Shown: piece after piece, positions 14,910-35,290 of the stretch
Layout: every line of letters begins with the position of its first letter
Position numbering within the stretch: the stretch's first letter is position 1
NCBI GenBank assembly: GCA_023133485.1
Contig: JAGLWK010000006.1
Location: 12,218 to 76,217 of the forward strand
Direction: 5' to 3'
DNA length: 64,000 nucleotides
Source of the DNA: Bacteroidales bacterium
GTDB lineage: Bacteria > Bacteroidota > Bacteroidia > Bacteroidales > B39-G9
The notes under the pieces: generated by a model
Databases searched by the model: none
Told to the model about the DNA's origin: nothing
Seen by the model: the letters and a program-made list of their open reading frames with translations, nothing else
Translations under genes and position numbers: made by a program

Positions 14910-14935
14910 TTAGTGTTTGTCTATAAAGTTGATAA

Positions 14936-15018: not shown

Positions 15019-15065
15019 GATTATAAAGTCCGAAAATTCTATTTCCTAAACTAAAATTATATATC

Positions 15066-18000
15066 ATGAAAAAATTATTATTTATTATTATTTCGTTATT
15101 AGTAAACATCTGTTTATTTGCTCAAACTCCCCAATCTTTTAATTATCAGACAATTATTAGAAACAGTTCAGGAGAGATCATAGCAAATCAAAATGTGAGC
15201 ATACAGATAAGTATCTTATTTGGTAGTATTGATGCAAGTGCTGTTTATACCGAAACACATCTGGATACAACAAACCAATTTGGTCTGATAAACCTTAAAA
15301 TAGGAGAAGGGACCACAACATATGACTTTTCTGCAATTGATTGGTCTAATACCCCTGCTTTCATAAAAATTGAATTAGATGTGAATGGTGGAAGCGATTA
15401 TCAGGAAATGGGAGTATCACAATTACTTTCAGTGCCTTATGCATTATATTCAAAAAATACCGAAAATATTGATGATGCAGATGCTGACCCTGAAAACGAA
15501 ATTCAGGACTTACAAATAAATGGTAATATATTAACAATAACTCTAAATGGCACAGCCACCGAAATTGATTTAAGCCAATATGACCAAAGTGGTATGAATA
15601 TTAATGATGCAGATGCTAACCCTGAAAACGAAATTCAGGACTTACAAATAGATGGTAATATTTTAACAATAACCCTAAATGGTACAGCTACAGAAATTGA
15701 TTTAAGTTCTTATATTGACAATACTGATAATCAAGAACTTAGCATAATTAATGATACCCTTAGTATTGCAGGTGGAACAAATATTATTGATTTAAGCATA
15801 TACGACCAAAGCGGTATGAATATTAATGATGCAGATGCTGATACAACAAATGAAATTCAAAATTTGGATATTACAGGAAATACTTTGTCAATTTCACAGG
15901 GAAACTCAATAATAATTCCAACAACCCCAAGTATTTGGAGTTCTGACGGTAGTAATATCTTTTATAATCAGGGAAATGTCGGAATTGGTTCCCTAACACC
16001 ATCAGGTAGATTAGAGGTAAAAGGAGATGCTACCGGAAGTCCTGACGATATTTTATTTGGAGTAATAAATAATAATGGTGATACTGTTTTGGCTGTTTAT
16101 CAGGGAGGAGTAAGAATATATGTTGATACTGCTACATCAAAAGCTACAGGTAGTAAAGGCGGATTTGCAGTTGGTGGATTTAATGCAGGGAAATCCAATT
16201 CAATTGAATATTTTAGAGTTACTCCTGATAGTGTGAGAATATATGTTGATACTGCTACGTCAAAAGCAACTGGTAGTAAAGGCGGATTTGCAGTTGGTGG
16301 ATTTAATGCAGGCAAAACAAATGGACTAGAGTTGTTAAGAGTAACAGACGATAGTGTTCGTATTTATGTAAAAAATACTACGTCAAAAGCCACAGGTAGT
16401 AAAGGTGGATTTGCAGTTGGTGGATTTAATGCAGGGAAATCAGGAGTTACAAATTTTTTAGATCTTACACCAAATAATTATTTCATTGGCCACGAAGCAG
16501 GATTTTCAAATACAACAGGATTGTATAACTCATTTATTGGTTATAATTCCGGTTATTCAAATACCATAGGTGAACGCAATATATTTATGGGTTATTATTC
16601 GGGATATTCAAACCTAGATGGATATAACAATCTATTTATTGGAGATTCTTCTGGTTATTCTAATTCAAGTGGTATTCGAAATATTTTCCTCGGTAACCGA
16701 GCAGGAAAAGCAAATACTACAGGATACCAAAATATTGCTATTGGAATGTATGCTGGTTATGAAAATACAATAGGGAATCGTAATGTTTTCATTGGAACCG
16801 CTGCTGGTTATGATAATACAGAGGGAATAACAAATGTGTTTATAGGTAATTTTGCAGGTGGATATAATACCTTAGGTAGCCAAAATGTTTTTATTGGAAG
16901 AACGGCAGGATACCTTAATACAACAGGTTCTAGTAATGTTTATGTTGGTATGGAGGCTGGTTTCAATAGCGATACAGCCCAACAAAATGTATGTATTGGC
17001 ATCCATAGTGGCTACAGTAATACAGGAGGATGGAGCAATGTTTTTGTTGGAGATAATACAGGATTTTCCAATACTACAGGTCACGATAATGTTTTTATAG
17101 GAAGTGGTACAGGTTATTATAACACCATTGGTTGTAATAATACGCTTCTTGGAATTCAAGCAGGTTATTCAAATACAGAAGGAACCAGTAATGTTTTCCT
17201 GGGATCTTTTTCTGGATGGAATAATACTACAGGTAATTATAATATTTACATTGGAGACCATGCTGGTCACGATAGCGATACAGCAGGTTCCAATGTTAGT
17301 ATAGGTTTTTACGCCGGATGTAAAAATGCGGGAGGAGGTAATAATGTTTTTATCGGAGATAATACAGCACAAGAGAACACAACTGGTAGCTCAAATGTTT
17401 TTATAGGAAAAGCAACAGGTGCTGAAAATACTACTGCTAATTATAATACATTCATCGGGAATGAAAGCGGACATAGTAATATAGAAGGGGAACAAAATAC
17501 ATTTTTTGGTGCTTCATCCGGCGTTTGGCACGCGGTTGGTGATAGTAATGTATTCATTGGAGTTGCAAGTGGAGCAAATCATATTAACGGAAGCAGCAAT
17601 ACTATGATAGGACCTTATGCAGGTTCCAATTCAAACGGAAGCGGAAATGTGTTTTTAGGTAATCATGCAGGTAATGACGAACAGGGATCAAATAAATTGT
17701 ATATCGAAAATACAGGACATGATAGTGCAAATGCATTGATCTATGGTGAGTTTGATAATGATATTCTTCGCTTTAATGCAGATGTAACTATAAAAGGAAA
17801 TCTAACTATTAAAGGCTCTGATAATTATAATTTGTTCCTTGGTGATTCTGCCGGTTATTTCAATTCTTCAGGTCAACAAAATACTTTTATTGGTACAGAA
17901 GCAGGAAATTTAAATAGCACAGGTTCCAAAAATGTATTCTTAGGAGCCTGGGCAGGAGAGTCTAATACTTTTGGTAGCAATAATACTTTCATGGGAAGAG

Positions 18001-18749
18001 CAGCAGGTTGTTCTAATACTGAGGGTAATGGTAATATATTTCTGGGAGACTGTGCAGGTGTTTATAATTCTACAGGAAGTGGAAATGTCTTCATGGGAAA
18101 TGGGACCGGATATGATAACACAGTTGGTGATTCAAGTGTATTTATTGGATACAATGCAGGTCGTTACGAAACGGCATCATACCGGTTGTATATTGAAAAT
18201 AGCCAGTCTGATAGCGAAAATGCCCTGATTTATGGTGAATTTGATAATGACAGTCTTTGGTTAAATGCTGATGTAAAAATCAAAAATTCATTAAGCGTTG
18301 GTGGAAATGTTGGTATTGGCACTATCATCCCCGATAAACTATTACATGTTGCCGGTGATGCAAGAATAGAAGGAGACATTTATTGGGGTACAGCAGAAGA
18401 TATATATATTAAACCAGACTTTGTTTTTAATATTGATTATCAAGATAATTATCAGATTCTTGATATTGAAAAATTTATAAAGAAAAATAATCATTTGCCT
18501 TGGTTAACTTCAGCCAAAGATGAAAACGATGGAATAAACATGACACGAATGCAGTTTGAAACACTCGAAGCAGTTGAAAATCTCCAACTACAAGTAATTG
18601 AGTTAAAAAAGGAAAATGAAAGGCAAAAAGAAATAAATAATAATTTACAACAGGCAAATTCCGGAAAGTATAATGAAATTAATGAATTAAAACAACTAAT
18701 TAATGAATTAAAACAACTAATTGATGATAAATTTTCTGAAAGTCATTAA
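15066..18749 (+). CDS. giant secreted beta-solenoid repeat protein, tail-fibre-like, HLPW-type C-terminal module (type C), two neck motifs
   Basis: 1227 aa with the same signal peptide and N-domain, and extra DADA(D/N)PENEIQDLQI.GNILTITLNGTATEIDLS units. It has two LYIEN...ALIYGEFDND necks (~17685-17820 and ~18178-18290). The C-terminus is DFVFNIDYQDNYQILDIEKFIKKNNHLPWLTSAKDENDGINMTRMQFETLEAVENLQLQVIELKKEN, with no SDKR.K S74 motif. Confidence 0.8.
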   Translation: MKKLLFIIISLLVNICLFAQTPQSFNYQTIIRNSSGEIIANQNVSIQISILFGSIDASAVYTETHLDTTNQFGLINLKIGEGTTTYDFSAIDWSNTPAFIKIELDVNGGSDYQEMGVSQLLSVPYALYSKNTENIDDADADPENEIQDLQINGNILTITLNGTATEIDLSQYDQSGMNINDADANPENEIQDLQIDGNILTITLNGTATEIDLSSYIDNTDNQELSIINDTLSIAGGTNIIDLSIYDQSGMNINDADADTTNEIQNLDITGNTLSISQGNSIIIPTTPSIWSSDGSNIFYNQGNVGIGSLTPSGRLEVKGDATGSPDDILFGVINNNGDTVLAVYQGGVRIYVDTATSKATGSKGGFAVGGFNAGKSNSIEYFRVTPDSVRIYVDTATSKATGSKGGFAVGGFNAGKTNGLELLRVTDDSVRIYVKNTTSKATGSKGGFAVGGFNAGKSGVTNFLDLTPNNYFIGHEAGFSNTTGLYNSFIGYNSGYSNTIGERNIFMGYYSGYSNLDGYNNLFIGDSSGYSNSSGIRNIFLGNRAGKANTTGYQNIAIGMYAGYENTIGNRNVFIGTAAGYDNTEGITNVFIGNFAGGYNTLGSQNVFIGRTAGYLNTTGSSNVYVGMEAGFNSDTAQQNVCIGIHSGYSNTGGWSNVFVGDNTGFSNTTGHDNVFIGSGTGYYNTIGCNNTLLGIQAGYSNTEGTSNVFLGSFSGWNNTTGNYNIYIGDHAGHDSDTAGSNVSIGFYAGCKNAGGGNNVFIGDNTAQENTTGSSNVFIGKATGAENTTANYNTFIGNESGHSNIEGEQNTFFGASSGVWHAVGDSNVFIGVASGANHINGSSNTMIGPYAGSNSNGSGNVFLGNHAGNDEQGSNKLYIENTGHDSANALIYGEFDNDILRFNADVTIKGNLTIKGSDNYNLFLGDSAGYFNSSGQQNTFIGTEAGNLNSTGSKNVFLGAWAGESNTFGSNNTFMGRAAGCSNTEGNGNIFLGDCAGVYNSTGSGNVFMGNGTGYDNTVGDSSVFIGYNAGRYETASYRLYIENSQSDSENALIYGEFDNDSLWLNADVKIKNSLSVGGNVGIGTIIPDKLLHVAGDARIEGDIYWGTAEDIYIKPDFVFNIDYQDNYQILDIEKFIKKNNHLPWLTSAKDENDGINMTRMQFETLEAVENLQLQVIELKKENERQKEINNNLQQANSGKYNEINELKQLINELKQLIDDKFSESH

Positions 18750-18822
18750 ATAATAATCTAATGAATACTATAATTCAAAAAATATTACAAAAATTCAATT
18801 TTCTAAACTAAAATTATAAATC

Positions 18823-21800
18823 ATGAAAAAATTATTATTTATTGTTATTTCTTTATTAGTAAATATCTGTTTATTTGCTCAAACTCCCCAATCTTTTAAT
18901 TATCAGACAATTATTAGAAATAGTTCAGGGGAAATCATAGTAAATCAAAATGTGAGCATGCAGATAAGTATATTGTTTGGCAGTATTGATGCAAGTGCTG
19001 TTTATACTGAAACACATCAAGACACAACAAATCAATTTGGATTGATAAACCTTAAAATAGGAGAAGGGACTACAACAGATGACTTTTCTGCAATTGATTG
19101 GGCTAATAATCCTGCTTTCATAAAAATTGAATTAGATATAAATGGTGGAAGCAATTATCAGGAAATGGGAGTATCGCAATTACTTTCAGTGCCTTATGCA
19201 TTATATTCAAAAAATACAGAAAATATTAATGATGCAGATGCTGATCCTGAAAACGAAATTCAGGACTTACAAATAGATGGTAATATTTTATCAATAACTC
19301 TAAATGGTACAGCTACTGAAATTGATTTAAGTCAATATGACCAAAGTGGTATGAATATTAATGATGCAGATGCTGACCCTGAAAACGAAATTCAGGACTT
19401 GCAAATAGATGGTAATATTTTAACAATATCTCTAAATGGTACAGCTACAGAAATTGATTTAAGTTCTTATATTGACAATACTGATAATCAGGAACTTAAC
19501 TTAAGTAATGATACCCTTAGTATTTCAGGCGGAACAAATACTATTGATTTAAGTATATACGACCAAAGTGGTATAAATATTAATGATGCAGATGCTGATA
19601 CAACAAATGAAATTCAAAATTTGGATATTACAGGGAATACCTTGTCAATTACACAGGGAAACTCAATAATAATTCCAACAACCGAAAATGTTTGGAGTTC
19701 TGACGGTAGTAATATCTTTTATAATCAGGGAAATGTTGGAATAGGCTCATTAACACCATCAGGTAGATTAGAGGTAAAAGGAGATGTTACAGGAAGTCCT
19801 GACGATATTTTATTTGGAGTAATAAATAATAATGGTGATACTGTTTTGGCTGTTTATCAGGGAGGAGTAAGAATATATGTTGATACTGCTACATCAAAAG
19901 CTACAGGTAGTAAAGGAGGATTTGCAGTTGGTGGATTTAATGCAGGGAAATCCAATTCAGTTGAATATCTTAGAGTAACTCCGGACAGTGTTAGAATATA
20001 TGTTGATACTGCTTCATCAAAAGCAACCGGTAGTAAAGGAGGTTTTGCTGTAGGTGGTTTGAATGCAGGCAAAACAAATGGACTGGAGTTGTTAAGAGTA
20101 ACAGACGATAGTGTACGTATTTATGTAAAAAATGCTACGTCAAAAGCCACAGGTAGTAAAGGTGGTTTTGCAGTTGGAGGTTTTAATGCAGGAAAATCAG
20201 ATGCTGTTAATTTTTTAGATCTTACACCAAAAAATTATTTAATTGGACACAGAGCTGGTCAGTCAATTACGGATGGAGATTATAATACCTTTTTCGGATA
20301 CGAAAGTGGTATATCAAATACATCAGGATATAATAATGTTTTCCTTGGTTATAATAGTGGATATATGAATACTACTGGTGCGCAAAATATCTTTATCGGC
20401 AAAAATTCTGGATACGATAATATTTCCGGTTTAGGAAATGTTTGTCTTGGTACTTTTACAGGCATGAATCTTGAAAATGCAAATTATAATGTATTTATTG
20501 GCGATGGCGCAGGAAAAACAGACTCTACAGGAAGCAATAATATTTTTATTGGCAGTTCTTCAGGTGCTGATAATTTGATAGGAACAGAAAATATATTTCT
20601 TGGAACAAATTCCGGTATTCATAATATTGATGGGGATAATAATATCTTTATCGGTAATAATTCAGGAAACTTTAACGAACAAGGAGAATATAATACATTT
20701 ATAGGATATAGAAGCGGGTATAAAAATACAACAGGCAACAGAAATCTTTTTCTTGGATATCAATGTGGTCATGAAAATATAATAGGCGACAAAAATCTTT
20801 TTATTGGTTATGAATGTGGTTATGAAAATGATTCTGCAAGTTATAATCAATTTATTGGTTACCAGTGTGGATACAATAATAGATTTGCTAAGTATAATAC
20901 ATTTATCGGATACATGTGTGGTTATTATAATACAGGAATATTAAGTAAACCCGATAGCGGATCTTATAATGTTTTTATCGGAAAACAATGTGGCTATAGT
21001 AATACAATAGGAAACAAAAATGTTTTTCTTGGTTATGAAAGTGGTTATTCAAATACAGATGGAGTTAATAATGTTTTTATAGGTTCAAAAACCGGTAGGA
21101 GTAACACAAGTGGTTTTAATAATGTTTTCCTCGGAAATAATGCAGGATATATGAATACAGAGGGAGACAGAAATGTTTTCCTCGGAAATACTGCAGGTTT
21201 CTCCAATACATCTGCATATCATAATATTTTTATCGGAGAAGCTGCCGGTTATGGTAATAAAGACGGAAGGTATAATATTTTTATTGGCTCAACTGCGGGT
21301 TATTATACCGATTCGGCAAATTCTAATATTTTTATAGGAACTGATGCAGGAGAATCTAATATAAATGGTGCAGGGAATGTTTTTATAGGTCAAGGTGCAG
21401 GAGTTCGTCATAAGGAAGGTGATAATAATGTGTTTCAGGGAATATTTGCAGGATATGAAGACACTTCAGGTGTTTATAATGTTTATATAGGAAACCGTGC
21501 AGGAATGGATAACATAACAGGACAAAGAAATGTTCTTTTAGGATGTTATGCAGGAGGAAATAGTCCAACAGGTAATAAAAATGTTTTTATTGGGAACTTC
21601 GCAGGATATAACGAAACTAATTCTGAGCGATTATATATTGAAAATTCAAGTACTGATTCAACCCAAGCACTTATTTATGGAGAATTTGATAATGATAGCC
21701 TTTGGTTCAATGCCGATGTAAAAATCAAGAATTCATTAAGCGTTGGTGGAAATGTTGGTATTGGCACTGTAACACCAGATAAACTATTACATGTTGCTGG

Positions 21801-22164
21801 TAATGCAAGAATAGAAGGAGACATTTATTGGGGTACAGCAGAAGATATATATATTAAACCAGACTTTGTTTTTAATATTGATTATCAAGATAATTATCAG
21901 ATTCTTGATATTGAAAAATTTATAAAGAAAAATAATCATTTGCCTTGGGTAACTTCAGCCAAAGATGAAAACGATGGAATAAACATGACACGAATGCAGT
22001 TTGAAACACTCGAAGCAGTTGAAAATCTCCAACTACAAGTAATTGAGTTAAAAAAGGAAAATGAAAGGCAAAAAGAACTGATTAATAATTTACAACAGGC
22101 AAATTCCGAAAAGTATAATGAATTAAGACAACTAATTGATGATAAATTTTTCGAAGGTCATTAA
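18823..22164 (+). CDS. giant secreted beta-solenoid repeat protein, tail-fibre-like, HLPW-type C-terminal module (type C)
   Basis: 1113 aa. The N-terminal ~470 aa and C-terminal ~170 aa are near-identical to gene 15066..18749, while the central repeat block is divergent (more Cys/Tyr-containing repeats such as GYQCGYNN). Confidence 0.8.
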   Translation: MKKLLFIVISLLVNICLFAQTPQSFNYQTIIRNSSGEIIVNQNVSMQISILFGSIDASAVYTETHQDTTNQFGLINLKIGEGTTTDDFSAIDWANNPAFIKIELDINGGSNYQEMGVSQLLSVPYALYSKNTENINDADADPENEIQDLQIDGNILSITLNGTATEIDLSQYDQSGMNINDADADPENEIQDLQIDGNILTISLNGTATEIDLSSYIDNTDNQELNLSNDTLSISGGTNTIDLSIYDQSGININDADADTTNEIQNLDITGNTLSITQGNSIIIPTTENVWSSDGSNIFYNQGNVGIGSLTPSGRLEVKGDVTGSPDDILFGVINNNGDTVLAVYQGGVRIYVDTATSKATGSKGGFAVGGFNAGKSNSVEYLRVTPDSVRIYVDTASSKATGSKGGFAVGGLNAGKTNGLELLRVTDDSVRIYVKNATSKATGSKGGFAVGGFNAGKSDAVNFLDLTPKNYLIGHRAGQSITDGDYNTFFGYESGISNTSGYNNVFLGYNSGYMNTTGAQNIFIGKNSGYDNISGLGNVCLGTFTGMNLENANYNVFIGDGAGKTDSTGSNNIFIGSSSGADNLIGTENIFLGTNSGIHNIDGDNNIFIGNNSGNFNEQGEYNTFIGYRSGYKNTTGNRNLFLGYQCGHENIIGDKNLFIGYECGYENDSASYNQFIGYQCGYNNRFAKYNTFIGYMCGYYNTGILSKPDSGSYNVFIGKQCGYSNTIGNKNVFLGYESGYSNTDGVNNVFIGSKTGRSNTSGFNNVFLGNNAGYMNTEGDRNVFLGNTAGFSNTSAYHNIFIGEAAGYGNKDGRYNIFIGSTAGYYTDSANSNIFIGTDAGESNINGAGNVFIGQGAGVRHKEGDNNVFQGIFAGYEDTSGVYNVYIGNRAGMDNITGQRNVLLGCYAGGNSPTGNKNVFIGNFAGYNETNSERLYIENSSTDSTQALIYGEFDNDSLWFNADVKIKNSLSVGGNVGIGTVTPDKLLHVAGNARIEGDIYWGTAEDIYIKPDFVFNIDYQDNYQILDIEKFIKKNNHLPWVTSAKDENDGINMTRMQFETLEAVENLQLQVIELKKENERQKELINNLQQANSEKYNELRQLIDDKFFEGH

Positions 22165-22190
22165 TTGGAAGCTTTAATATAAACTAAAAA

Positions 22191-22220
22191 AGTCCTGATC
22201 GAATAAATCAGGGCTTTTTG
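22191..22220 (+). terminator. intrinsic terminator of the giant-gene array
   Basis: AGTCCTGAT-cgaataa-ATCAGGGCT forms a 9-bp stem (one G-U pair) followed by TTTTTGTTG, 27 nt after the stop at 22164. Confidence 0.65.
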
Positions 22221-22222
22221 TT

Positions 22223-22237
22223 GTGATCCAGCTGGGT
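22223..22237. repeat. attL core (duplicate of tRNA-Lys 3' end)
   Basis: Identical to 41714-41728. The following bases CTTGAACCTGAAT resemble tRNA TTCGAACCCAGGA with mismatches. Confidence 0.75.
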
Positions 22238-22344
22238 CTTGAACCTGAATTGTTGCAACGTTCGTGTTTGTTGTGTTTGTAAAATATTTAAAACTCAATC
22301 GTTAAACAATTGGTAAACATTTGTTGGTTTATTGTTTTTTTTTT

Positions 22345-22889
22345 TTTGATAGCAAAAAACTACCCGGCTAAATCTTGGATTAATTTATTTGATAACAAAT
22401 AAATTAACCGGTTAAAAGTCGATTTTTTATCATATTTTTTATGATAGCAAAAAAAACCCAAGCTCTTTCCGATCTGATTTTTTTTGATAGTAAAATTATT
22501 TTTTATTTAATGATCTTTTTTTATTAGATTTTTTTAATAGTAAAAACTTAATATTCAGTACCGGACCTTTTTAATATTTGATAGCAAAAAGCGCACCGGG
22601 ACAAAAGCCCGATAGAGCTATTTGATAGCAAAACTGTTTTTAATATAATAAGTTCCTGTTCTCATGAGATTAATTGCCGGTATTTTTGATAGTAAAATTA
22701 TTTTTTATTTAATGATCTTTTTTTATTAGATTTTTTTAATAGTAAAAACTTAATATTCAGTACCGGACCTTTTTAATATTTGATAGCAAAAAGCGCACCG
22801 GGACAAAAACTCGATAGAGCTATTTGATAGCAAAACTATTTTTAATATAATAGGATCTTGTGCCCATGAGATTAATTGCCGGTATTTTT
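22345..22889. repeat. array of 12 same-orientation copies of TTTGATAGCAAAA-type 13-mer, including a 202-bp tandem duplication
   Basis: Motif starts are at 22345, 22388, 22440, 22483, 22533, 22577, 22621, 22685, 22735, 22779, 22823 and 22877. Variants are TTTGATAACAAAT, TATGATAGCAAAA, TTTGATAGTAAAA, TTTAATAGTAAAA and TTTAATAGCAAAA. Starts 4-7 repeat as 8-11 exactly 202 bp later. Most spacers contain CCGG. Confidence 0.85.
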
Positions 22890-22904
22890 AATAGCAAAAT
22901 CATT

Positions 22905-23018
22905 TTATATCGTTATAATTCCCAAAAAATGCAAAACCAAAACAATTGCTAAAATAATTAAGCCAATATAAAGGTTTGCTAACAGGTATTTTTTTCGTGA
23001 TGTATAACGCTTTTTCAT
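22905..23018 (-). CDS. 37-aa basic-N-terminus single-TM peptide (not in ORF track)
   Basis: Read on the minus strand it gives MKKRYTSRKKYLLANLYIGLIILAIVLVLHFLGIITI*. Its ATG overlaps the TGA of the upstream ORF as ATGA (23018-23015), which suggests translational coupling. Confidence 0.45.
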   Translation of the reverse strand: MKKRYTSRKKYLLANLYIGLIILAIVLVLHFLGIITI

Positions 23019-23512
23019 TGTTTGTTAAATTCAAGATTATTAGCTTTGTCTTGTAAAATTATAGCATTTGCGTTTTTTATAATGTTTATTATATCTCTTA
23101 AAAGAATTTGGTCAATTTCTATTAATTTATTTTCATTTTCATTTTCGTTTTTCTTTTTAAATACAACATTTCCTTTATCAATTATTTTATTAAATTTATC
23201 AATATCATCAATTAATACTTGTGGGTTTATTTTATTATTTTTATCTGCATAATACATGATTTCTTTTTTTTCATCTTTTAATTCACTATTTTTTAACTTA
23301 TGATTTTTAATAATTAATTTTGATAAATATTCTCCGAAACCTAAAAATTCTTTTATTAAAGGGATTTCAAGAAAACATGGTGAGATGTTTATCTTTATTT
23401 GTATTTCTGCAATTTGAATTTTTTCAATTAACTTATCAACATTAAAATAAAAACCATCAATAAAAACTAATGATGAGTTTTTTAGTTCTGTTATAAAATC
23501 TTTTTTTTTCAT
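23015..23512 (-). CDS. hypothetical protein, second gene of repressor operon
   Basis: 165-aa ORF starting 11 bp after the stop of the XRE gene on the same strand. It has no TM helix and no motif I recognise. Confidence 0.5.
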   Translation of the reverse strand: MKKKDFITELKNSSLVFIDGFYFNVDKLIEKIQIAEIQIKINISPCFLEIPLIKEFLGFGEYLSKLIIKNHKLKNSELKDEKKEIMYYADKNNKINPQVLIDDIDKFNKIIDKGNVVFKKKNENENENKLIEIDQILLRDIINIIKNANAIILQDKANNLEFNKQ

Positions 23513-23523
23513 AATTATTTATT

Positions 23524-23874
23524 TTATTTATTTAAAATTTCAATAATTTCATTTTTTGCTTTTAACAATTCTTTCAAATGTTTGTTTTCTGTTTTTATTT
23601 TTTCTATATCATTATAATTAATATCACCACTTATATTATTTTTATTTCCGTTTACTTTATGACCTAAATCAATATTACCATGTGTGTTGTTTTCAAAAAA
23701 ATAAGCAACTGGCACTTCTAAAACTGCAGCAAATTTTATTAAATACTTGCTTTCCATACTATCTCTTGTAATGCATTTATAAAAATTAGCAGACGACATT
23801 CCAACTTTACCACAAAGTTTTGTAATTGGTATTTTTCTTTTTTCTGCTAATATTTTAATTTTTTTTATACTCAT
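23524..23874 (-). CDS. XRE/cI-like helix-turn-helix transcriptional regulator
   Basis: The N-terminus IKILAEKRKIPITKLCGKVGMSSANFYKCITRDSMESKYLIKFAAVLEVPVAYFF fits the HTH_XRE pattern. It is transcribed divergently from the early operon. Confidence 0.75.
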   Translation of the reverse strand: MSIKKIKILAEKRKIPITKLCGKVGMSSANFYKCITRDSMESKYLIKFAAVLEVPVAYFFENNTHGNIDLGHKVNGNKNNISGDINYNDIEKIKTENKHLKELLKAKNEIIEILNK

Positions 23875-23896
23875 TATCAGTTAGATAGAATAATTG

Positions 23897-23939
23897 TGTA
23901 AAATATAAGTGTCAATTATTTGCAATACTGTAAAATATA
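23897..23939. promoter_or_regulatory. candidate operators in divergent cI/cro-like intergenic region
   Basis: TGTAAAATATA occurs twice (23897-23907 and 23929-23939), 32 bp apart, between the divergent starts at 23874 and 23993. Confidence 0.45.
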
Positions 23940-23992
23940 GTATATACTTGTATTGTTAATATAATAATTATTAATCAAAAATCAAACCAATC

Positions 23993-24265
23993 ATGAAAAC
24001 ATTTAGGCAAATTTACTACTGTTTACCCGAAACCATCCAGACAAATTTTAGAAAAAAGCTTATTGAATTGAGCGGAATATCCATTGCAACCTTTTACAAA
24101 TATCTTGGTGAAAGGTCATCTATCCCAAAGTTGACAAAAAGAGAAATTTTTGAATTGTTAAACATTTACGTCAACGAAGCTATCAACGTATTGGAAGATA
24201 TTAAAGAAAATATTTCAATTAAAGATTTATTTACCGAACCGGTAACTGATGGTGTTGAAGTGTAG
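23993..24265 (+). CDS. small HTH-like early regulator (Cro position)
   Basis: 90 aa. The segment LSGISIATFYKYLGERSSIP looks like a helix-turn-helix. It is the first gene of the rightward operon. Confidence 0.5.
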   Translation: MKTFRQIYYCLPETIQTNFRKKLIELSGISIATFYKYLGERSSIPKLTKREIFELLNIYVNEAINVLEDIKENISIKDLFTEPVTDGVEV

Positions 24266-24299
24266 TTCTAATTAATTAAAAATCATTAAAATTAAAATC

Positions 24300-24647
24300 A
24301 TGGATAAAAAATCATATTTAAAAGAAATCAAGTTGCTTGAAAAAGAATTTGAAGATGAAGTTAAATGTTTTATGGAATTACTTAACAGAGTTAATTCTTC
24401 CGAAAGTATTGGGGCTGATGTTGAATTTTCTTTTTCAATAAAAAAAGATGCTGTTTCAAAAACCTTTAGATACAAAATACATGGTTATGGAGAAAATTAT
24501 TTTGTTAAATTTGATAAGGACGATTATTTCACTTTTGATAGTACAAGAGACTATGAAAGGTGTATTGAGTTTTTGGAAGAAATACGTATTGGGATACAAA
24601 AATTCAAGCAATGTTTTTTATTAGACGAAGGCAAAATCCTTTTATAA
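24300..24647 (+). CDS. hypothetical protein
   Basis: 115-aa ORF tightly packed in the rightward operon. Confidence 0.45.
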   Translation: MDKKSYLKEIKLLEKEFEDEVKCFMELLNRVNSSESIGADVEFSFSIKKDAVSKTFRYKIHGYGENYFVKFDKDDYFTFDSTRDYERCIEFLEEIRIGIQKFKQCFLLDEGKILL

Positions 24648-24662
24648 TTTAAACCCGCACCC

Positions 24663-25013
24663 ATGAAACTAACAAAATCAGAAACCGAAGTCATTGAAGC
24701 AATGGAAGAAAGTCAAAAGTCTTTACGTAAGAAAATTGGTTTAAAACAAAGAATTATTTTAGCATACAAAGCCTTTATGATTGAAAACTACAGATTTCAG
24801 CTACCTTATCAATATTATTGCAAATTGGCATTTAAGGCTTATGAGTGTGATAATAATAGGCGAAAATCAAAATGTAATAATCAGGCAAAGGTTGCTTTAG
24901 CTAATCCGTTCGTTGAAATTAAAATAGAAGAATCTGAACATTTTTATCACGTATGTTTAGAGTGTAGTAAAAAATATATTGGAACTGATGGAGAAGATTT
25001 TGATTTTAATTAA
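24663..25013 (+). CDS. hypothetical protein with Cys-pair (zinc-ribbon-like) motifs
   Basis: 116 aa containing CDNNRRKSKC and CLECSKKY. Its N-terminus MKLTKSETEVIEAM is paralogous to the next ORF. Confidence 0.45.
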   Translation: MKLTKSETEVIEAMEESQKSLRKKIGLKQRIILAYKAFMIENYRFQLPYQYYCKLAFKAYECDNNRRKSKCNNQAKVALANPFVEIKIEESEHFYHVCLECSKKYIGTDGEDFDFN

Positions 25014-25046
25014 AGTAAAATCTTTTTATAATTTAAACTCGCACCC

Positions 25047-25262
25047 ATGCAACTAACAAAATCAGAAAGAGAAATTCTTGAAGCAATGAAAGGAAACTTT
25101 GAATTGCCTTTAATATTTAAAGGAGAAATACTTAAAAACCACCAAAGACATTACAATGCCGTTGATAAATTAAAAGAAAAAGGTTTAGTAATGTTGAACG
25201 ACCAAAACATAATGGTTTTTACAAAAAAGTATGTTGATATGTTTTATAATAATAAGGATTAA
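25047..25262 (+). CDS. hypothetical protein (N-terminal paralog of 24663..25013)
   Basis: 71 aa beginning MQLTKSEREILEAM. Its upstream leader ATAATTTAAAC(C/T)CGCACCC-ATG is duplicated. Confidence 0.45.
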   Translation: MQLTKSEREILEAMKGNFELPLIFKGEILKNHQRHYNAVDKLKEKGLVMLNDQNIMVFTKKYVDMFYNNKD

Positions 25263-25263
25263 G

Positions 25264-25602
25264 TTAATCAGTATTATTTAATATGTTTTCAACTTTAATA
25301 ATCATATAAATTAATCCTATGAAAGACAACAAAGCATACCAACATAATCCTTGCGTTAACCAAAATTGCCAACCAGACCAATCGAATGATTTAAAAATTA
25401 AAAAAGCCGGAGCAATTAAACCAATAGTTATAATGGCAAGGATAACCAATATACTTTGGGCTATATTTTGGGCAAATAGTCTTTTTATGTGCTTAATCCA
25501 CCAAAATATCATAAACGTTAAACTAATAGCAGAGAACATAGTAGTCATAAATGCAATTACAATAAATGTGTTTGTGTTCATTATTTCTTTAATTACGTTC
25601 AT
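25264..25602 (-). CDS. multi-pass membrane protein, antisense to surrounding operon (moron-like)
   Basis: 112 aa with about 4 hydrophobic helices (FIVIAFMTTMFSAISLTFMIFWWI, ILVILAIITIGLIAPAFLIF, LCWYALLSFIGLIYMII). The overlapping + strand ORF 25319..25654 looks spurious. Confidence 0.5.
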   Translation of the reverse strand: MNVIKEIMNTNTFIVIAFMTTMFSAISLTFMIFWWIKHIKRLFAQNIAQSILVILAIITIGLIAPAFLIFKSFDWSGWQFWLTQGLCWYALLSFIGLIYMIIKVENILNNTD

Positions 25603-25670
25603 AAGTTTTTTTATTAATTACCGTATAATACGGTTTTATCCTTTTCACTTTTAACAAATATAACAACTTA

Positions 25671-25928
25671 ATGGAATCAAACACAAACAAATTACCATTC
25701 TATCTAATCAATATTGACAAAACTGTTGCTTTCAAAGTTTATGATAACAATTACATTGAAATTGTTGAACTTAAATCTTTTAAAAACTCAAATCTTTACA
25801 CATATTCACAACAAAAAAATGTAAGTAAAATTATTTTAGAAAAAATCATTAACAGTAACACTATAATTGATGAGTTACAATACGAATTACATAAACACAA
25901 AATTGTTAATGCTTTATTACAAACATAA
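25671..25928 (+). CDS. hypothetical protein
   Basis: 85-aa ORF in the rightward operon. Confidence 0.4.
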   Translation: MESNTNKLPFYLINIDKTVAFKVYDNNYIEIVELKSFKNSNLYTYSQQKNVSKIILEKIINSNTIIDELQYELHKHKIVNALLQT

Positions 25929-25954
25929 TGTTTAACTGATGCAAAAACCCGAAA

Positions 25955-26230
25955 ATGCCATTAGAAGAAACACTTGAAGATATTAAGAATGATTTAAAAA
26001 AGTTACTTAACAATAACGATAATGATAAACTACCTGCATGGTTACCTGAATTATTATTAACACCAGGTCAGCTTGCAGATGTTTTAAAAATTTCGTCTCA
26101 GGAAGTAAGACGTAAAATTAAAACAGGAAAGATAAAATCCGTTTCTCACGGGCCAAAAGAATTTGAGTTACGTGTTAAGTACAAAGATTTTATTGATTAT
26201 TTAAAAACTTTAAACAATACAGATGTTTGA
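25955..26230 (+). CDS. excisionase-type (MerR/HTH_17-like) DNA-binding protein
   Basis: LLTPGQLADVLKISSQEVRRKIKTGKIKSV matches the short winged-HTH excisionase pattern. Confidence 0.55.
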   Translation: MPLEETLEDIKNDLKKLLNNNDNDKLPAWLPELLLTPGQLADVLKISSQEVRRKIKTGKIKSVSHGPKEFELRVKYKDFIDYLKTLNNTDV

Positions 26231-26405
26231 TATTCTTAAAAAATCCGTCCATGGTAAACCATTTATATACGATAACAAGCTATATAAAATAGTAATTATC
26301 AAAAAGGAAACTCTTGTTATTGAAAGGTCAGTTGTTAACGGACTTATCAGGCATGAATTACCTATAAATAAAATTACTCAATTAAAAATTTTCACAATCA
26401 AATAA
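26223..26405 (+). CDS. hypothetical protein
   Basis: 60-aa ORF overlapping the previous stop by 8 nt. Confidence 0.35.
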   Translation: MFDILKKSVHGKPFIYDNKLYKIVIIKKETLVIERSVVNGLIRHELPINKITQLKIFTIK

Positions 26406-26439
26406 ATATGTTACATATAAAAACTTTTTTCTGTGTTGT

Positions 26440-26640
26440 GTTTTGTTGGTTAAGGCATGGTTCTTTACTTGGCGGTTGGGAGCCGTGCCTTTTTAAAGAC
26501 TTTACTCCTGGCGTGGTGATTAGAAACCTCACAAAAAGGAGTGGTTCGAAGCAAGCCGGTAGTTTATTTAACTGCCGGCAGCTTTCCAAAGTTATCTTGC
26601 TTTGAAATAAGAAAAGAGTTTCTACGCTGATAAGCGGAAT
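26440..26640. other. G+C-rich hairpin-dense non-coding island (candidate origin or structured RNA)
   Basis: I counted 72/160 G+C (45%) for 26441-26600 against 14/60 (23%) for 26341-26400. Stems include AAGGCATGGTTC/GAGCCGTGCCTT (12 bp), ACTCCT/AGGAGT, GCCGGTAGT/ACTGCCGGC (9 bp), CAAAG/CTTTG and CGCT/AGCG. Only overlapping both-strand ORFs are listed here. Confidence 0.5.
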
Positions 26641-26680
26641 AATAAAAAAAATTATTAATGATATAAACAACTTTAATATT

Positions 26681-27097
26681 ATGGATGGAATTCAAACAGC
26701 AATTGACGGAACTTATACCGTATTTTACAAAGAAATTTGGGACAAAAAATTTAAAAAACAAGTAATAATTAGTGATCCAAAACAAGCAAGTTTTATAACT
26801 AATGAATTAAATAAGCAGGAGATCGTCTCATTACTCACAGGATTTTTAAATTATTATGATAAAATATTTTTAATGTATGGAGATGTCAGAGACAAGAAGA
26901 AAAATATTGTTTTATTATTTAAAAAACTTGATAATATTAAAAAATCTGATATTAATATATTTTTCAAACAAGTTATAGAAGTTCTACCTGAATTTTTTGA
27001 TATAATAACTACAGAAAAAAGCAAATCTTATATAACACAATTTAACAAAATTAACAAAATCAAAGACGTTTGTCAGACGTTTGAAAACGTTGCTTAA
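26681..27097 (+). CDS. hypothetical protein
   Basis: 138-aa ORF immediately upstream of the Rep iterons. Confidence 0.45.
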   Translation: MDGIQTAIDGTYTVFYKEIWDKKFKKQVIISDPKQASFITNELNKQEIVSLLTGFLNYYDKIFLMYGDVRDKKKNIVLLFKKLDNIKKSDINIFFKQVIEVLPEFFDIITTEKSKSYITQFNKINKIKDVCQTFENVA

Positions 27098-27234
27098 ACG
27101 AACGTTTCATTAAGCAAGAAAAAATCAACGTAAATAGCTAATTTTCAACGTCTTAACCCTTCCTTGTTAATAAAGGAACAGGTTTGACATTTAGGACGTT
27201 GCTTAAACGTTTGAAATAGTTGCTTAAACGAACT
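27060..27234. promoter_or_regulatory. iteron/hairpin cluster upstream of Rep
   Basis: TTGCTTAAACG occurs at 27090-27100, 27199-27209 and 27220-27230. An inverted TTAAGCAA at 27110-27117 can form an 8-bp hairpin with copy 1. GACGTTTG occurs twice (27065, 27076) and CGTTTGAAA twice (27078, 27207). Confidence 0.55.
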
Positions 27235-28605
27235 ATGTTTTTTATGAAAAAAAGCTTTGATATAAAAAAATACAACCGGGTTAGGTCAAATGTTGTTTCT
27301 GCTTTAAGGAGAAAAAACCTAAGATTGATAAAAGATGTTGGAAATTTTATAAAAAACAATGATTTACCCGAAGAACAAGTCAATCATTTAAGACGATTAT
27401 GTAGAAATATTGGTTTTTGTGCTTTTTTTTCTCTTTACAGTGATGATTTGGTTAGTGGTGAGAAAAAATATTACAGTAGCTATTCCTGCGATAATAAAAA
27501 TTGCAATATCTGTAATTGGTTAAGACAGAAAAGAATAAGAAGAAAATATACAAAATGGTTTAAAAACAATGAAAAGTTGGTTGTTCTTAATAATAAAAAA
27601 AGGAATGTAAGAAAGATTGTTACAACAACTCAGTATAACGATAAATATAAAAACAATAACAATTATGAATTTATTAAATATTGTGAGTATGATGTAATGA
27701 GTATTACGTTAACCGTGCCGCATTATAAAGATATTGGATTTAATGGAAGTAAATATTATTTTAATGAGATTATTGGACTATTCAGGGATCTTTATAAAAA
27801 CAAAGAATTTAAAGAGTGGGTGTATGGCGGTGAGTATGGAATAGAAGCAACACGGACAGATAAAAACGGTTGGAATATTCACATGCACGGATTATTACTT
27901 GTTAAACGAGAGATACAGAATCGTAATAAGTTGCATAAAGTTATTTTAAAAATATGGAATGAATTATCTGTAAATAAAGAAAGTAAGCGTTTGTTTTTTT
28001 CCCGGGAAGCCATTAGTAAAATAAAAAAATCAAATAAAATGATTGATGAAAATTATATAAATCAATTAAATCCACAAGGTGCAACAATGCTCACTATTGA
28101 AACAATTTATAGTTTAAGGAAAGGCGAAAAAGTAAGAACAAACAATATTGCAAGTGATGCAATGATGAAAGCAGTAAGAGAAGCTATATCATATCATTTT
28201 GAGCCACAATGTTTTGATAAAGACACAAAAGAATTTCGACTTGATGAGTTAGCAGAGATATTACCAAAAGTTTACAGAAAAGTTCTTTACAGAAAATTTG
28301 GTTGTTTTTATGGCGAAAAGGAACTTAACGTTAATTATAAGGAAGAAAGATTATTAGAAGATTTAAAAGATGCAACCGAGATTATTGCAGACGAAGATAC
28401 AGGAGAAATATTAAGCGAATTTGAATTTTTTATATGCGACCCTGCAAGAGTATTTCATAATACCGAAAAGGAACTTGAAATTGTTTTGAGTAAAGAAGCC
28501 AAGAGAGACATATTAAAACTTGAAGCAGGTTCATCGGCAATAGCTCTTGATATTATGAGTCAATTAGTATTAGAGAAAATAAAATCAAAATATACAAACA
28601 ATTAA
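27235..28605 (+). CDS. HUH-type rolling-circle replication initiator (Rep)-like protein
   Basis: It carries the ordered RCR motifs MSITLTVPH (motif 1-like), WNIHMHGLLLV (HUH) and REAISYHFEP (candidate catalytic Tyr), plus an N-terminal Cys cluster CDNKNCNICNW. The ATG at 27235 is preferred to the listed TTG at 27220. Confidence 0.6.
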   Translation: MFFMKKSFDIKKYNRVRSNVVSALRRKNLRLIKDVGNFIKNNDLPEEQVNHLRRLCRNIGFCAFFSLYSDDLVSGEKKYYSSYSCDNKNCNICNWLRQKRIRRKYTKWFKNNEKLVVLNNKKRNVRKIVTTTQYNDKYKNNNNYEFIKYCEYDVMSITLTVPHYKDIGFNGSKYYFNEIIGLFRDLYKNKEFKEWVYGGEYGIEATRTDKNGWNIHMHGLLLVKREIQNRNKLHKVILKIWNELSVNKESKRLFFSREAISKIKKSNKMIDENYINQLNPQGATMLTIETIYSLRKGEKVRTNNIASDAMMKAVREAISYHFEPQCFDKDTKEFRLDELAEILPKVYRKVLYRKFGCFYGEKELNVNYKEERLLEDLKDATEIIADEDTGEILSEFEFFICDPARVFHNTEKELEIVLSKEAKRDILKLEAGSSAIALDIMSQLVLEKIKSKYTNN

Positions 28606-28627
28606 TTATTAATTAAAACCTATAATT

Positions 28628-29050
28628 ATGTTAAAATTACAAGTAATTGGCAATCTTGGTTCAGATGCTAAGGTTAACGAAGTAAACGGACGTAAAGCAA
28701 TTAATTTTAATATTGCTGAAAACCGTAATTATAAAGACAAGGAAGGAATTAAACATGAAGTTACAACATGGTTAAATTGTACAATGTGGAAAGATAATAA
28801 CCAGAGTGTTGAAATTGTCAAGTATTTAAAAAAGGGTACAAAGGTTTATATTGAAGGTTTGCCTGCAGTACAAACTTATGTGAATAAAGAAAAGAAAACA
28901 ATTGGCATGTTTGGTTTGAATGTTAGAAACATTGAGTTGTTAAGTAAAAAAACCGAAGAAGAAAGTACATTTGAAAAACCATCAGAGAAAGTAAATAAAA
29001 GTGATATTTCAGAAGAAGCACTTCCTTCTAATGACGGTATGCCGTTTTAA
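28628..29050 (+). CDS. ssb: single-stranded DNA-binding protein
   Basis: OB-fold SSB pattern MLKLQVIGNLGSDAKVNEVNGRKAINFNIAENR...TWLNCTMW...GTKVYIEG...L, followed by an acidic/Pro tail ending DGMPF. Confidence 0.85.
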   Translation: MLKLQVIGNLGSDAKVNEVNGRKAINFNIAENRNYKDKEGIKHEVTTWLNCTMWKDNNQSVEIVKYLKKGTKVYIEGLPAVQTYVNKEKKTIGMFGLNVRNIELLSKKTEEESTFEKPSEKVNKSDISEEALPSNDGMPF

Positions 29051-29064
29051 TTAAAAATGGGGTT

Positions 29065-29370
29065 ATGAATGAAATAAAAAGCAAAGTAATGATAAGATTA
29101 ACCGATGATGGTTTAAAATTGGTTGAATCTTTAAAAATATCTGTTGATGAAACAAGTATGTCAAAATCTTTTATGAAAGCAGCCGATAAGGTTGTTAATG
29201 AGATACCAAGATTAAAAAACAATAACGAAGCTTTAGAAGCAGAAAATAAACTTTTAAAAGAAGGGTATATGTTACTTTATAAGGTTTTGGAAAAAAAGAA
29301 AAATATTGAAAAAGAACTTGATGAAGTAATGAGGGATAGTAGAAATTTATTATTTATTGATATGTATTAA
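29065..29370 (+). CDS. hypothetical coiled-coil protein
   Basis: 101-aa ORF in the operon after ssb. Confidence 0.45.
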   Translation: MNEIKSKVMIRLTDDGLKLVESLKISVDETSMSKSFMKAADKVVNEIPRLKNNNEALEAENKLLKEGYMLLYKVLEKKKNIEKELDEVMRDSRNLLFIDMY

Positions 29371-29372
29371 TT

Positions 29373-29576
29373 ATGAAATATAAAAACGTTTTTACAGATG
29401 ATATTGTAAATATTATTTTAATTAATAGTAAAATAGTTACTTATATTAAAGAAGAACCACAAATTATAATAGAAGGCAAAAAGGAATTTGTAATAAAAGA
29501 ATTTTCAAAACCTTTACACGTATTTCAAAAATGTTATAATAAAGTTTGTTTTGATAGTAAAATATTTTCAAGATAG
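29373..29576 (+). CDS. hypothetical protein
   Basis: 67-aa ORF starting 2 nt after the previous stop. Confidence 0.4.
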   Translation: MKYKNVFTDDIVNIILINSKIVTYIKEEPQIIIEGKKEFVIKEFSKPLHVFQKCYNKVCFDSKIFSR

Positions 29577-29692
29577 TCTGATGAATATCGGAACCGGAAT
29601 TATTAAAAACAGTTTTGCTATCAAATATTATAACCGGACACAATAACTGGTTAGTTTTTTGTTATCAAAATATAAAATAGTTTAATAAATTA

Positions 29693-29721
29693 AAGCCTGA
29701 GTTTTACTTGGGCTTTTTTTT
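29693..29721 (+). terminator. intrinsic terminator ending the replication module
   Basis: AAGCCTGAGT-ttt-ACTTGGGCTT forms a 10-bp stem with two G-U pairs, followed by TTTTTT. Confidence 0.6.
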
Positions 29722-29766
29722 GTTAATAAAGAAGCAGTTTTTTAAAATCTTACTTAAATTTTACTT

Positions 29767-29895
29767 AAACCTTATCGAAACCTTATTTTGATTTTTTTTG
29801 AAAAAAACAAATAATTTGTAAGATATTAATTATTAATATTTTATAAAAACACAACCCTACCTTAAACCTTATCAAAACCTTATATTAAACCTTAT
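29767..29895 (+). promoter_or_regulatory. AAACCTTAT iterons (2 + 3 copies, 11-12 bp phasing)
   Basis: Copies lie at 29767, 29778, 29864, 29875 and 29887, with an inverted ATAAGG at 29913. A TAttTTTG sequence (Bacteroidetes -7 box form TAnnTTTG) lies at 29930-29937, 20 nt before the ATG at 29957. Confidence 0.5.
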
Positions 29896-29956
29896 AGTAT
29901 ATATGCTTTGTTATAAGGAAAATATTATATATTTTTGAGAAAAACAAAAACAAATT

Positions 29957-30148
29957 ATGTCAGATTATCTAACTCCAAGTGAGATACTGACAAAACACAC
30001 ACAGCTACGTACAATTTGGAACAATAAACAAATAGGTTATTTATTGAATTTAAGACTTGTTAAAGGGAAAAAGTTACAACGAACATGTCTTGTTGACGAA
30101 CAAGATGTATTAAATTTGTATAAATTTGTAAAAAGTTCCAAAAAATAA
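29957..30148 (+). CDS. small hypothetical protein (possible DNA-binding)
   Basis: 63-aa ORF after the iterons, at the head of the structural block. Confidence 0.4.
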   Translation: MSDYLTPSEILTKHTQLRTIWNNKQIGYLLNLRLVKGKKLQRTCLVDEQDVLNLYKFVKSSKK

Positions 30149-30301
30149 AATTTTCTTACCATTTAATTACCAACCATTTATAAACTTTATTAACAGCCTG
30201 TTGATAAATTGAGTAACTACTCCGTAATGGGGAGTACTTGCCATGTATTGAATCAGTGTATAGTTTTGTATTAAAATTAAACTAATTAAAATTTTTTTAT
30301 T

Positions 30302-31257: not shown

Positions 31258-31260
31258 TAA

Positions 31261-32919: not shown

Positions 32920-32932
32920 AAATATTTTAGTC

Positions 32933-35289: not shown

Positions 35290-35290
35290 T

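Follow-up and report, generated by a model that had tools for sequence, protein, structure and literature searches.

Several plasmid and phage regulators act through one short DNA site that is reused many times. The omega repressor of pSM19035 and the inc18 plasmids, a small global regulator of the ribbon-helix-helix type, binds arrays of 7-10 heptads in direct and inverted orientation at several loci, and KorB of the IncP plasmid RK2 serves as one global regulator for several operons, acting at a distance through the twelve 13-bp palindromes OB1-OB12 (TTTAGCSGCTAAA). P2 Cox, 186 Apl and lambda Xis are small proteins with repeated sites in an att arm and in regulatory regions, by which recombination is coupled to transcription, and the iterons of P1 incA and F incC form a second, larger site cluster that titrates or pairs with the replication initiator and sets a threshold. 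Here we analyse an array of twelve short boxes at the left end of a 19.5-kb element (22221-41736) that is integrated into a tRNA-Lys gene of a Bacteroidales metagenome-assembled genome; the whole 64,000-nucleotide stretch of this genome that was analysed is called the window below. Comparison with related elements suggests that the boxes, in the form of a three-box module, and a family of small proteins, represented in the window by one of 101 amino acids (aa), travel together. Another site to which such an array invites comparison is sopC of the F plasmid, described as 12 direct 43-bp repeats, each with an inverted-repeat SopB-binding motif (PMC3177203).

A match scan allowing at most 2 mismatches finds 12 boxes of the consensus TTTGATAGCAAAA, all on the plus strand, within a 555-bp array at 22345-22899 (starts at 22345, 22388, 22440, 22483, 22533, 22577, 22621, 22685, 22735, 22779, 22823 and 22887). 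A preliminary description of this DNA had already reported twelve boxes in one orientation with a 202-bp duplication, which both the match scan and Tandem Repeats Finder (TRF) bear out, and had closed the array at 22889, which needs correction since the last box ends at 22899. Successive boxes start 43, 52, 43, 50, 44, 44, 64, 50, 44, 44 and 64 bp apart, 43-44 bp being the commonest spacing, and spacers of 30-51 bp separate the conserved 13-bp unit. The box is a quasi-palindrome, TTTGnTAnCAAA, with an asymmetric centre that is itself conserved. Across the window the consensus has 36 matches, against 12.7 +/- 3.4 in shuffled sequence, and none of 100 shuffles reached 36. With the limit set at 1 mismatch there are 16 matches, and 15 of them fall within the integrated element, which covers 30% of the window. 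The motif is element-specific.

The duplication, found by TRF (period 202) and by a repeat search, pairs 22481-22682 with 22683-22884 on the plus strand (22481-22884 in all), with four boxes per copy. The copies are 96% identical, and their 8 differing positions all lie in spacers and none in boxes. The array as a whole is made up of seven distinct units, the 202-bp duplicate and one extra box. Among units 1-7 the spacers share a mutual identity of just 17-60% and are not alignable, while the boxes vary by 0-2 bases; such a pattern is the mark of selection on the 13-mer. Eight copies of CCGG occur in the array, or 14.4 per kb against 1.44 per kb element-wide, a tenfold enrichment, and most spacers carry one. 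There is no open reading frame (ORF) of at least 50 aa between 22164 and 23015. A CRISPR was rejected given the 13-bp unit, the variable spacers, the duplication of four units together with their spacers and the lack of cas genes in the element, and the earlier view of the array as non-coding and not CRISPR-like stands.

The array is bordered by a leftward operon that runs towards it. This operon (23015-23874, minus strand) comprises a 165-aa ORF (23015-23512) and a candidate repressor of the Cro/CI type with a helix-turn-helix (HTH) domain (23524-23874), and its last member is a 37-aa hydrophobic putative ORF read straight from the sequence (22905-23018, minus strand), whose start codon shares the sequence ATGA with the stop codon of the preceding ORF and whose own stop codon lies 6 nt from box 12. 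Two three-box modules stand further inside the element. Module A (29550-29669), with boxes at 29550(+), 29613(-) and 29657(-), spacings of 63 and 44 bp and CCGG in its spacers, is positioned at the end of the early/replication operon, right in front of the sole strong intrinsic terminator predicted in the element (29692-29716, plus strand) and 180 nt downstream of the gene for the 101-aa protein (29065-29370, plus strand). Module B (36877-36986), with boxes at 36877(+), 36930(-) and 36974(-) and spacings of 53 and 44 bp, lies between a 73-aa gene and a 308-aa gene (ATG at 36992). The two minus-strand boxes are 44 bp apart in each module, and a stretch of 25 nt, TTTGATAGCAAAACTGTTTTTAATA, is the same at box 7 of the array and at the box at 29613. 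The likeness between the array and the modules at 29.6 and 36.9 kb, which had been remarked on before, is supported.

Set beside the described systems, the array is closest in form to F sopC and in logic to the plasmid and phage global regulators that reuse one site. The likeness to sopC consists in twelve direct repeats of about 43 bp with an inverted-repeat motif and in an array that adjoins its own operon. However, the element is without a SopA/ParA-type ATPase or a ParB-type protein, its spacers are unconserved, its boxes also occur as three-box modules, and it integrates. The omega heptads are contiguous, with a 7-bp period, and lie in promoters, whereas the boxes of the element measure 12-13 bp, stand 4-6 helical turns apart and occupy operon 3' ends or intergenic gaps without detectable promoters, and the fold of their candidate binder is only predicted. 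KorB is a member of the ParB family with the ATPase IncC as its partner, and its sites are scattered singly rather than grouped in phased triplets or a tandem array. The sites of Cox, Apl and Xis are contiguous, about one turn apart, 2-6 in number and spread over less than 100 bp, in contrast to a period of ~44-55 bp over 555 bp. The incA and incC clusters hold sites for the initiators of theta replicons, whereas the present element is of the rolling-circle type with a separate origin, and its boxes do not track the Rep protein. We know of no description of a three-box geometry at 44/55 bp with CCGG spacers.

Nine element lineages were compared, of which the window element, L053, L055 and L058 bear boxes and L002, L005, L054, L056 and L057 do not. 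A common layout, with two direct boxes and one inverted box about 44 and 55 bp apart and CCGG in the spacers, occurs in 4 of the 9. In L053 (= L052), whose integrase is of the same type as that of the window element (E = 5e-75), the order is int, arm repeat, attP core, arm repeat and then boxes at 4749(-), 4804(-) and 4849(+), the first box beginning where the attP arm repeat ends; further modules lie at 5747/5802/5847 and 3250/3295/3350. Boxes within these modules are 55 and 45 bp apart, and their spacers contain CCGG and CTGATCAG. In L058 the boxes number six, all in one orientation, with the form TTTTG(T/C)TATCA(T/A)T and CCGG spacers, and 3 nt separate the end of this cluster from the stop codon of the final gene in a leftward HTH operon. 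L055 uses a variant box, TGATTGCAAAA, and arranges it in four modules (-,-,+) with spacings of 44 and 55 bp. Of these modules, one is 6 nt away from the leftward-operon stop codon, and another has a 73-aa gene on one side and a 303-aa gene on the other, which is where the window has module B. The window, L055 and L058 therefore all carry a box cluster at the leftward-operon 3' end, with modules near that position in L053, and the number of boxes there ranges from 3 to 12 across lineages (3, 6 and 12), the window having the most.

Neither a box scan nor a de novo local-repeat search found modules in L002, L005, L054, L056 or L057. L002, which is integrated, and L005 were the first two syntenic relatives to be compared, and they are without the motif or any array. 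Absence from syntenic relatives had been proposed beforehand as grounds for doubting the array, and on this point the outcome is divided: the boxes are present in four lineages, where they track one gene, and absent from five. This split distribution argues for a function, because the presence of boxes follows a single gene across lineages, though not for one that is essential to the element family.

The gene in question emerged from an all-ORF comparison of the window element with its relatives, in which that for the 101-aa protein was the one gene tracking the boxes. A homologue is found in 4/4 box-bearing lineages (L053, 8403-8807; L058, 8610-9011; L055, 6101-6364 and 5813-6097) and in 0/5 box-free lineages, a split with a hypergeometric probability of 1/126. 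Judged by Rep identity, the lineages with boxes do not fall into a single group, and the window element clusters with the box-free L002 and L054; because this grouping splits the box-bearing lineages, shared descent alone is a poor explanation of the co-occurrence. An exhaustive HMMER search with the 101-aa protein added three more small homologues, and their loci were fetched via the protein only. In L061 a three-box module starts from the stop codon of the homologue gene, with boxes GCTATCA(-), TTTGATAGCATTA(+) and AATGATAGCAATA(+), spacings of 55 and 43 bp and three CCGG in the first spacer. L059/L060 represents a different kind of element, a tailed-phage-like contig of ~40 kb with a DnaG-type primase and an S49 protease. 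Its module, TTTTGCAATCACT(-), TTCTGCAATCATT(-) and CTGATTGCATTTC(+), with spacings of 45 and 56 bp and CCGG, follows a terminator hairpin at the early/late boundary and has no integrase in its vicinity, and one extra box lies right behind the homologue gene. The sites therefore co-occur with a specific element-encoded protein across independent genomes, as would be expected of an operator cluster, and of the roles suggested in the preliminary description the multimerised operator or regulator sink is the best reading. From these comparisons the 101-aa protein, which that description had not named among its possible binders, is most likely the binder of the boxes, and the site-protein pair looks as if it moves between unrelated elements, namely the rolling-circle elements, the tailed-phage-like contig and possibly others. 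The homologue family follows the pattern LTIRLt..e..L.e.LK....SASKALLkAAd.V, after which comes a coiled coil.

We give about an even chance to the reading that the array is a site cluster for the 101-aa protein with a regulatory or boundary role; its exact function, whether roadblock/insulator, sink or tether, is a guess made from position. On this reading the two three-box modules, one at the early/late boundary (29.6 kb) and one preceding the distal late genes (36.9 kb), would be targets of that protein as well. Because the spacings (~44, 55 and 64 bp) are near whole helical turns, we propose that the bound proteins would lie on one face of the DNA, where they could form a cooperative, extended nucleoprotein complex. 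The sites are without detectable promoters and stand at operon 3' ends and boundaries, being 3-6 nt from stop codons in three lineages, near the terminator at 29692-29716 in the window and at the early/late boundary in L059, and for this reason the array would most likely be a boundary element, that is, a protein roadblock, insulator or distal operator separating transcription units. In the prophage such a barrier would stop transcription of the leftward repressor operon from reaching host DNA, in the circular form it would stop the same transcription from crossing attP into int, and in addition it would protect the repressor operon against incoming convergent transcripts. A set of twelve sites would also hold a large share of the regulator and buffer its free concentration. 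Copy number rose via tandem duplication, relatives having 3 or 6 boxes where the window has 12.

Several observations weigh against this reading. The co-occurrence sample is nine lineages, and the fetched loci of the box-free lineages do not all span the whole element, which makes an outlying module possible there. Several of the protein links are weak: the window and L053 homologues match at E = 3e-4, and L058 is joined to the window only via a two-sequence profile. At the loci found by DNA pattern and described below (L001, the Pedobacter locus L020, the Runella-like locus L026 and the termite-gut contigs), no homologue of the 101-aa protein was detected. The orientation of the boxes relative to the flanking genes differs in the window from that in L053, L055 and L058, the window boxes being inverted with respect to the module frame. 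The helical-phasing statistic of the array is only marginal, its 11 spacings lying near whole turns with a best fit of 10.6-10.7 bp per turn at P about 0.015-0.03. The head of the protein looks ribbon-helix-helix-like from the sequence pattern and from a low-confidence model (strand 8-12, helix 14-22, helix 34-49, then long helices; predicted local distance difference test, pLDDT, 58.7). No match to the candidate binder was found in Pfam, a profile search of PDB returned coiled coils only, none significant, and Foldseek against PDB with the two AlphaFold models (pLDDT 58.7 and 70.1) gave nothing. Alignment by hhalign to CopG, Arc, Mnt, ParG and omega, five classical members of that fold, reached a non-significant probability of 3.7-6%, with the alignment in register. 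Homologue searches with the 101-aa protein and with the L026 protein returned almost nothing, and the family has no relative in Pfam, PDB or the phage database. Lastly, a boundary role leaves the need for 12 copies and the role of CCGG unexplained.

The close formal likeness to F sopC, with 12 co-oriented, phased, quasi-palindromic boxes most often 43-44 bp apart, raises the alternative of a centromere-like or tethering site whose protein complex segregates, tethers or compacts the circular form, the dispersed modules being secondary as in the plasmid-prophage N15. The differing copy numbers among relatives (3, 6 and 12) would suit such a site, as would a candidate binder that joins a small DNA-binding-like head to a coiled coil in the manner of many centromere-binding proteins. 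We nevertheless regard it as unlikely. Partition loci need a nucleoside triphosphatase, and no Walker-A or deviant Walker-A motif was found in ORFs of at least 80 aa across 22.2-41.8 kb; Pfam and PHROGs searches of the element proteins likewise gave no ParA, ParM (actin-like) or TubZ-type match. The suggestion of a partition or packaging site in the preliminary description is unsupported on the same ground. An integrating element has, moreover, no need of partition in lysogeny, the modules lie at operon boundaries and stop codons in a way that fits control of transcription, and five related lineages are box-free. A more far-reaching variant, which we consider quite improbable, is that the three-box module and the small protein constitute an undescribed, portable, ATPase-free system that organises mobile-element DNA. 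Coiled-coil bridging would split the circular form of the element into three looped domains (early, structural and lysis/int/att) that would serve as protein-made transcription boundaries, and the array would be the master anchor, providing tethering or segregation like sopC without SopA. The boxes could alternatively be passengers, a three-box module multiplied neutrally by slippage or unequal crossing-over. The 202-bp duplication is indeed recent (96% identity), copy number does vary among relatives, and a chromosomal intergenic 44-bp tandem repeat with the same 12-mer (TTTGATAGTAAA), which is probably unrelated to the element boxes, varies from 2 to 5 copies (2, 2, 3 and 5 in the near-identical L038, L050, L044 and L042; for example L042 5317-5505, between a histidine-phosphatase gene and a convergent gene). 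Yet units 1-7 are old, with unalignable spacers, and still keep their boxes within 2 mismatches together with phasing and CCGG, whereas passenger copies should decay together with their spacers, and neutral amplification seems to us a poor prospect as the whole account.

The position of the array makes an architectural extension of the att arm worth weighing, in which a protein bound there would bend the int-distal arm, or wrap it, and so govern in which direction or how efficiently integration and excision run, in the manner of Cox or Xis, which bind att arms and promoters alike. The attL core (22221-22245) is a copy of the tRNA-Lys 3' end (86% over 28 nt in a repeat search) and has its partner in the attR core at 41712-41736, within the predicted tRNA-Lys gene (41714-41787, minus strand). 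A candidate arm-type repeat, ATCGTTAAACAATTGGTAAACATTT, occurs at 22298-22329 and again, with 91% identity, at 41581-41612 beside the start codon of a tyrosine integrase gene of the Bacteroidota type (40428-41603, minus strand; Arm-DNA-bind_5, Phage_int_SAM_5 and Phage_integrase); these repeats, which adjoin both att ends, are probably the arm-type sites of the integrase. The array begins 15 bp past the putative arm-type repeat, at a distance of 100 bp from the core of attL, and circularisation would place it upstream of int, in the same orientation, as had been foreseen and as the att and int coordinates bear out. In L053, which has the same type of integrase, the first box likewise stands at the arm-repeat end of attP, and P2 Cox and 186 Apl are known cases of a single motif serving both an att arm and promoters. 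However, 555 bp far exceeds known att arms, and in L058 a gene apparently intervenes between the cluster and what is presumed to be the end of the element. What stays constant across lineages is the leftward-operon stop codon and not att, the module of the tailed-phage-like L059 lies at the early/late boundary and has no integrase close to it, and the excisionase-like HTH_17 protein does not track the boxes, all of which makes an att-arm role doubtful in our judgement. As integrase arm-type sites proper the boxes were rejected: they occur on the int-distal side only, recur 7 and 14 kb further into the element, and are distinct from the repeat that stands on either side of the core; L053 likewise has its own different repeat on both sides of its attP core. 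Far less probable is a replication element, meaning a rolling-circle origin with nick sites or iterons, or a single-strand origin. In its favour, the box contains TTGATA, which is similar to CTTGATA, the nick core of the pC194/phiX174 group; a Rep_1-family protein is encoded in the element, and the non-coding array lies ~4.3 kb upstream of rep in the same sense; and one pattern match, L001, belongs to the corticoviruses, which are rolling-circle replicators as well. The origin itself lies elsewhere, however. A nick sequence of the form ACCCTTCCTTG(A/T)TAATAA(A)GG occurs at 27160-27185, 35-60 bp upstream of rep, and recurs in the same place in L002 (9895), L005 (6145) and L007 (190). In the window it reads CCTTCCTTGTTAATAAAGG, with its core at 27163-27183, between two 39-bp direct repeats (27065 and 27195; region 27065-27233) that are 128-130 bp apart in both the window and L002, and it matches the pC194 origin TTCTTTCTTATCTTGATAATAAGGGTAAC, also written CTTATCTTGATAATAAGGG (PMC7072734). 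With this conserved nick sequence near rep and five Rep-bearing relatives free of boxes, the array was rejected as a rolling-circle double-strand origin, and the earlier proposal of an origin falls with it. A single-strand origin found no support either, since folding is modest and without strand asymmetry (z = -3.3 on the plus and -3.6 on the minus strand) and involves short local palindromes only. Twelve tandem nick sites would, besides, cut the replicon into mini-circles.

Other identities were considered and set aside. A promoter scan with TTTG at -33, a spacer of 19-21 nt and TAnnTTTG at -7 found two lone TAnnTTTG in the array, neither with a -33 partner, and the idea of an array of Bacteroidetes sigma-A promoters was dropped. 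Canonical promoters of this type occur elsewhere in the window, at 41816(-), 29930(+), 30261(+) and 25662(-); the one ahead of the tRNA reads TTTG-N19-TATCTTTG, and similar ones at 29930 and 30261 precede late genes. The best sigma-70-type matches in the element (TTGATA-16-TATAAT, 11/12) are at 22622-22649 and 22824-22851, where boxes 7 and 11 form the -35 hexamer; they point rightwards, antisense to the repressor operon, and are probably irrelevant to the sigma-A of Bacteroidales. As for intrinsic terminators, a GC hairpin precedes TTTTGCTATC in several metagenomic loci, and the window has only one weak case (22614-22594), so that the association is not a general one. Look-alikes of IHF, FNR, DnaA and integron attC sites were excluded by eye on consensus mismatch. 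An Rfam search of 22000-42000 at E <= 1 returned, apart from the tRNA, just a Thr-leader match put down to chance (24.8 bits, the threshold being 55), and a literature search for the motif string returned primers only. The HTH proteins of the element, which had been named as possible binders, do not fit that part. The Cro/CI-like repressor (23524-23874) has a repeated motif of its own in the switch region, TGTAAAATATA, and HTH_17 is present in box-free relatives, is missing from the precomputed annotation of two box-bearing ones and does not track the boxes. Both copies of TGTAAAATATA (23897-23940) fall within the 119 bp that separate the Cro/CI-like gene from the divergent first rightward gene, and they are probably operators of this repressor itself.

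The remainder of the element helps to place it. A rightward early operon encodes the HTH_17 protein, a Rep_1-family rolling-circle initiator (27220-28605) and SSB, and the late block includes an endolysin and a lectin-like protein. No recognisable capsid, terminase or Walker-A ATPase was found in the element. Searches by tblastn with Rep and the 101-aa protein against the GenBank phage collection (INPHARED) gave no match for either, and Rep gave none against the PLSDB plasmids. Rep homologues in metagenomes number ~80, all at no more than 49% identity, and many lie on contigs of 15-21 kb. By these comparisons the 19.5-kb element is a member of an uncharacterised family of integrative rolling-circle elements, and it could be an unusual tailless or single-stranded-DNA-type phage or an integrative plasmid.

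Further repeats were noted in and beside the element. At 29740-29935 at least 5 AACCTTAT repeats with a period of about 10-12 bp precede the promoter TTTG-N19-TATTTTTG (29930) and an ORF at 29957-30148; in relatives the same place holds other short repeats, namely TATGAAAAA three times in L002 and eight of the ATACCGG type at 8770-8870 in L005, the latter ahead of a ribbon-helix-helix (RHH)-like 143-aa gene. An 84-nt direct repeat with 86% identity (24628-24711 and 25012-25095) spans the upstream region and first codons of the adjacent small genes 24663-25013 and 25047-25262, which points to a local gene duplication. On the minus strand at 25662 stands a canonical Bacteroidetes promoter, TTTG-N21-TATATTTG, and because of this promoter we favour the minus-strand ORF 25264-25602 over the overlapping plus-strand ORF 25319-25654, suggesting that the former is the real gene. 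The host DNA to the left of the element (5300-22164) contains very large ORFs, for example 15066-18749 and 18823-22164, with internal repeats of 123-bp period (CATTAAATCC at 123-bp steps), which suggests repetitive surface proteins. Two of the box-free lineages have dense arrays of other sequences: L057 carries ATCACAGGC seven times and CCGGAACCC six times at 9723-9913 and 11842-12865, and L056 carries CCCTTTAAGG five times at 2577-2835, behind an HTH gene. Such arrays may be site clusters of a comparable kind but of different specificity.

Scans of genome and metagenome collections with the exact pattern gave many matches that are unrelated coding or tandem repeats and not instances of the module. 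A few non-coding look-alikes with differing spacers and 44- or 55-bp spacing were found at L001, L020, L026/L043 and in termite-gut contigs. L001 (= L012) is a 10,236-bp circular Pseudoalteromonas corticovirus with a PM2-type coat protein. Its three boxes (9268-9500) lie in a leftward operon between a 160-aa DUF3653 gene and a 79-aa gene, the third box 12 nt ahead of the start codon of the latter; PM2 itself has no boxes. Both L001 and L026 have a small-protein gene just downstream of the boxes, and the two proteins are each other's best match, at a weak level. A phmmer comparison found no protein common to the window element and L001 or L020. In the termite-gut contigs, pairs or triplets of TTTGATAGCAAA at 44-bp spacing, with GC hairpins in the spacers, stand ahead of differing toxin-antitoxin operons (PIN/VapC-like, RelE/YoeB-like and HicAB), at L027 106-162 and 800-856, L029 635-760, L046 2600-2723 and L048 483-539, and from their conserved flanks these sites suggest a repeated cassette boundary. 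All the loci found by pattern are leads, not evidence.

The regulatory DNA of Bacteroidota mobile elements is poorly described, and the boxes provide a cis element of fixed geometry together with a specific candidate partner protein. If the array and its modules do act as boundaries, they would represent protein-defined operon boundaries in phage-like elements, one of which would have grown by tandem duplication at the end of a prophage.

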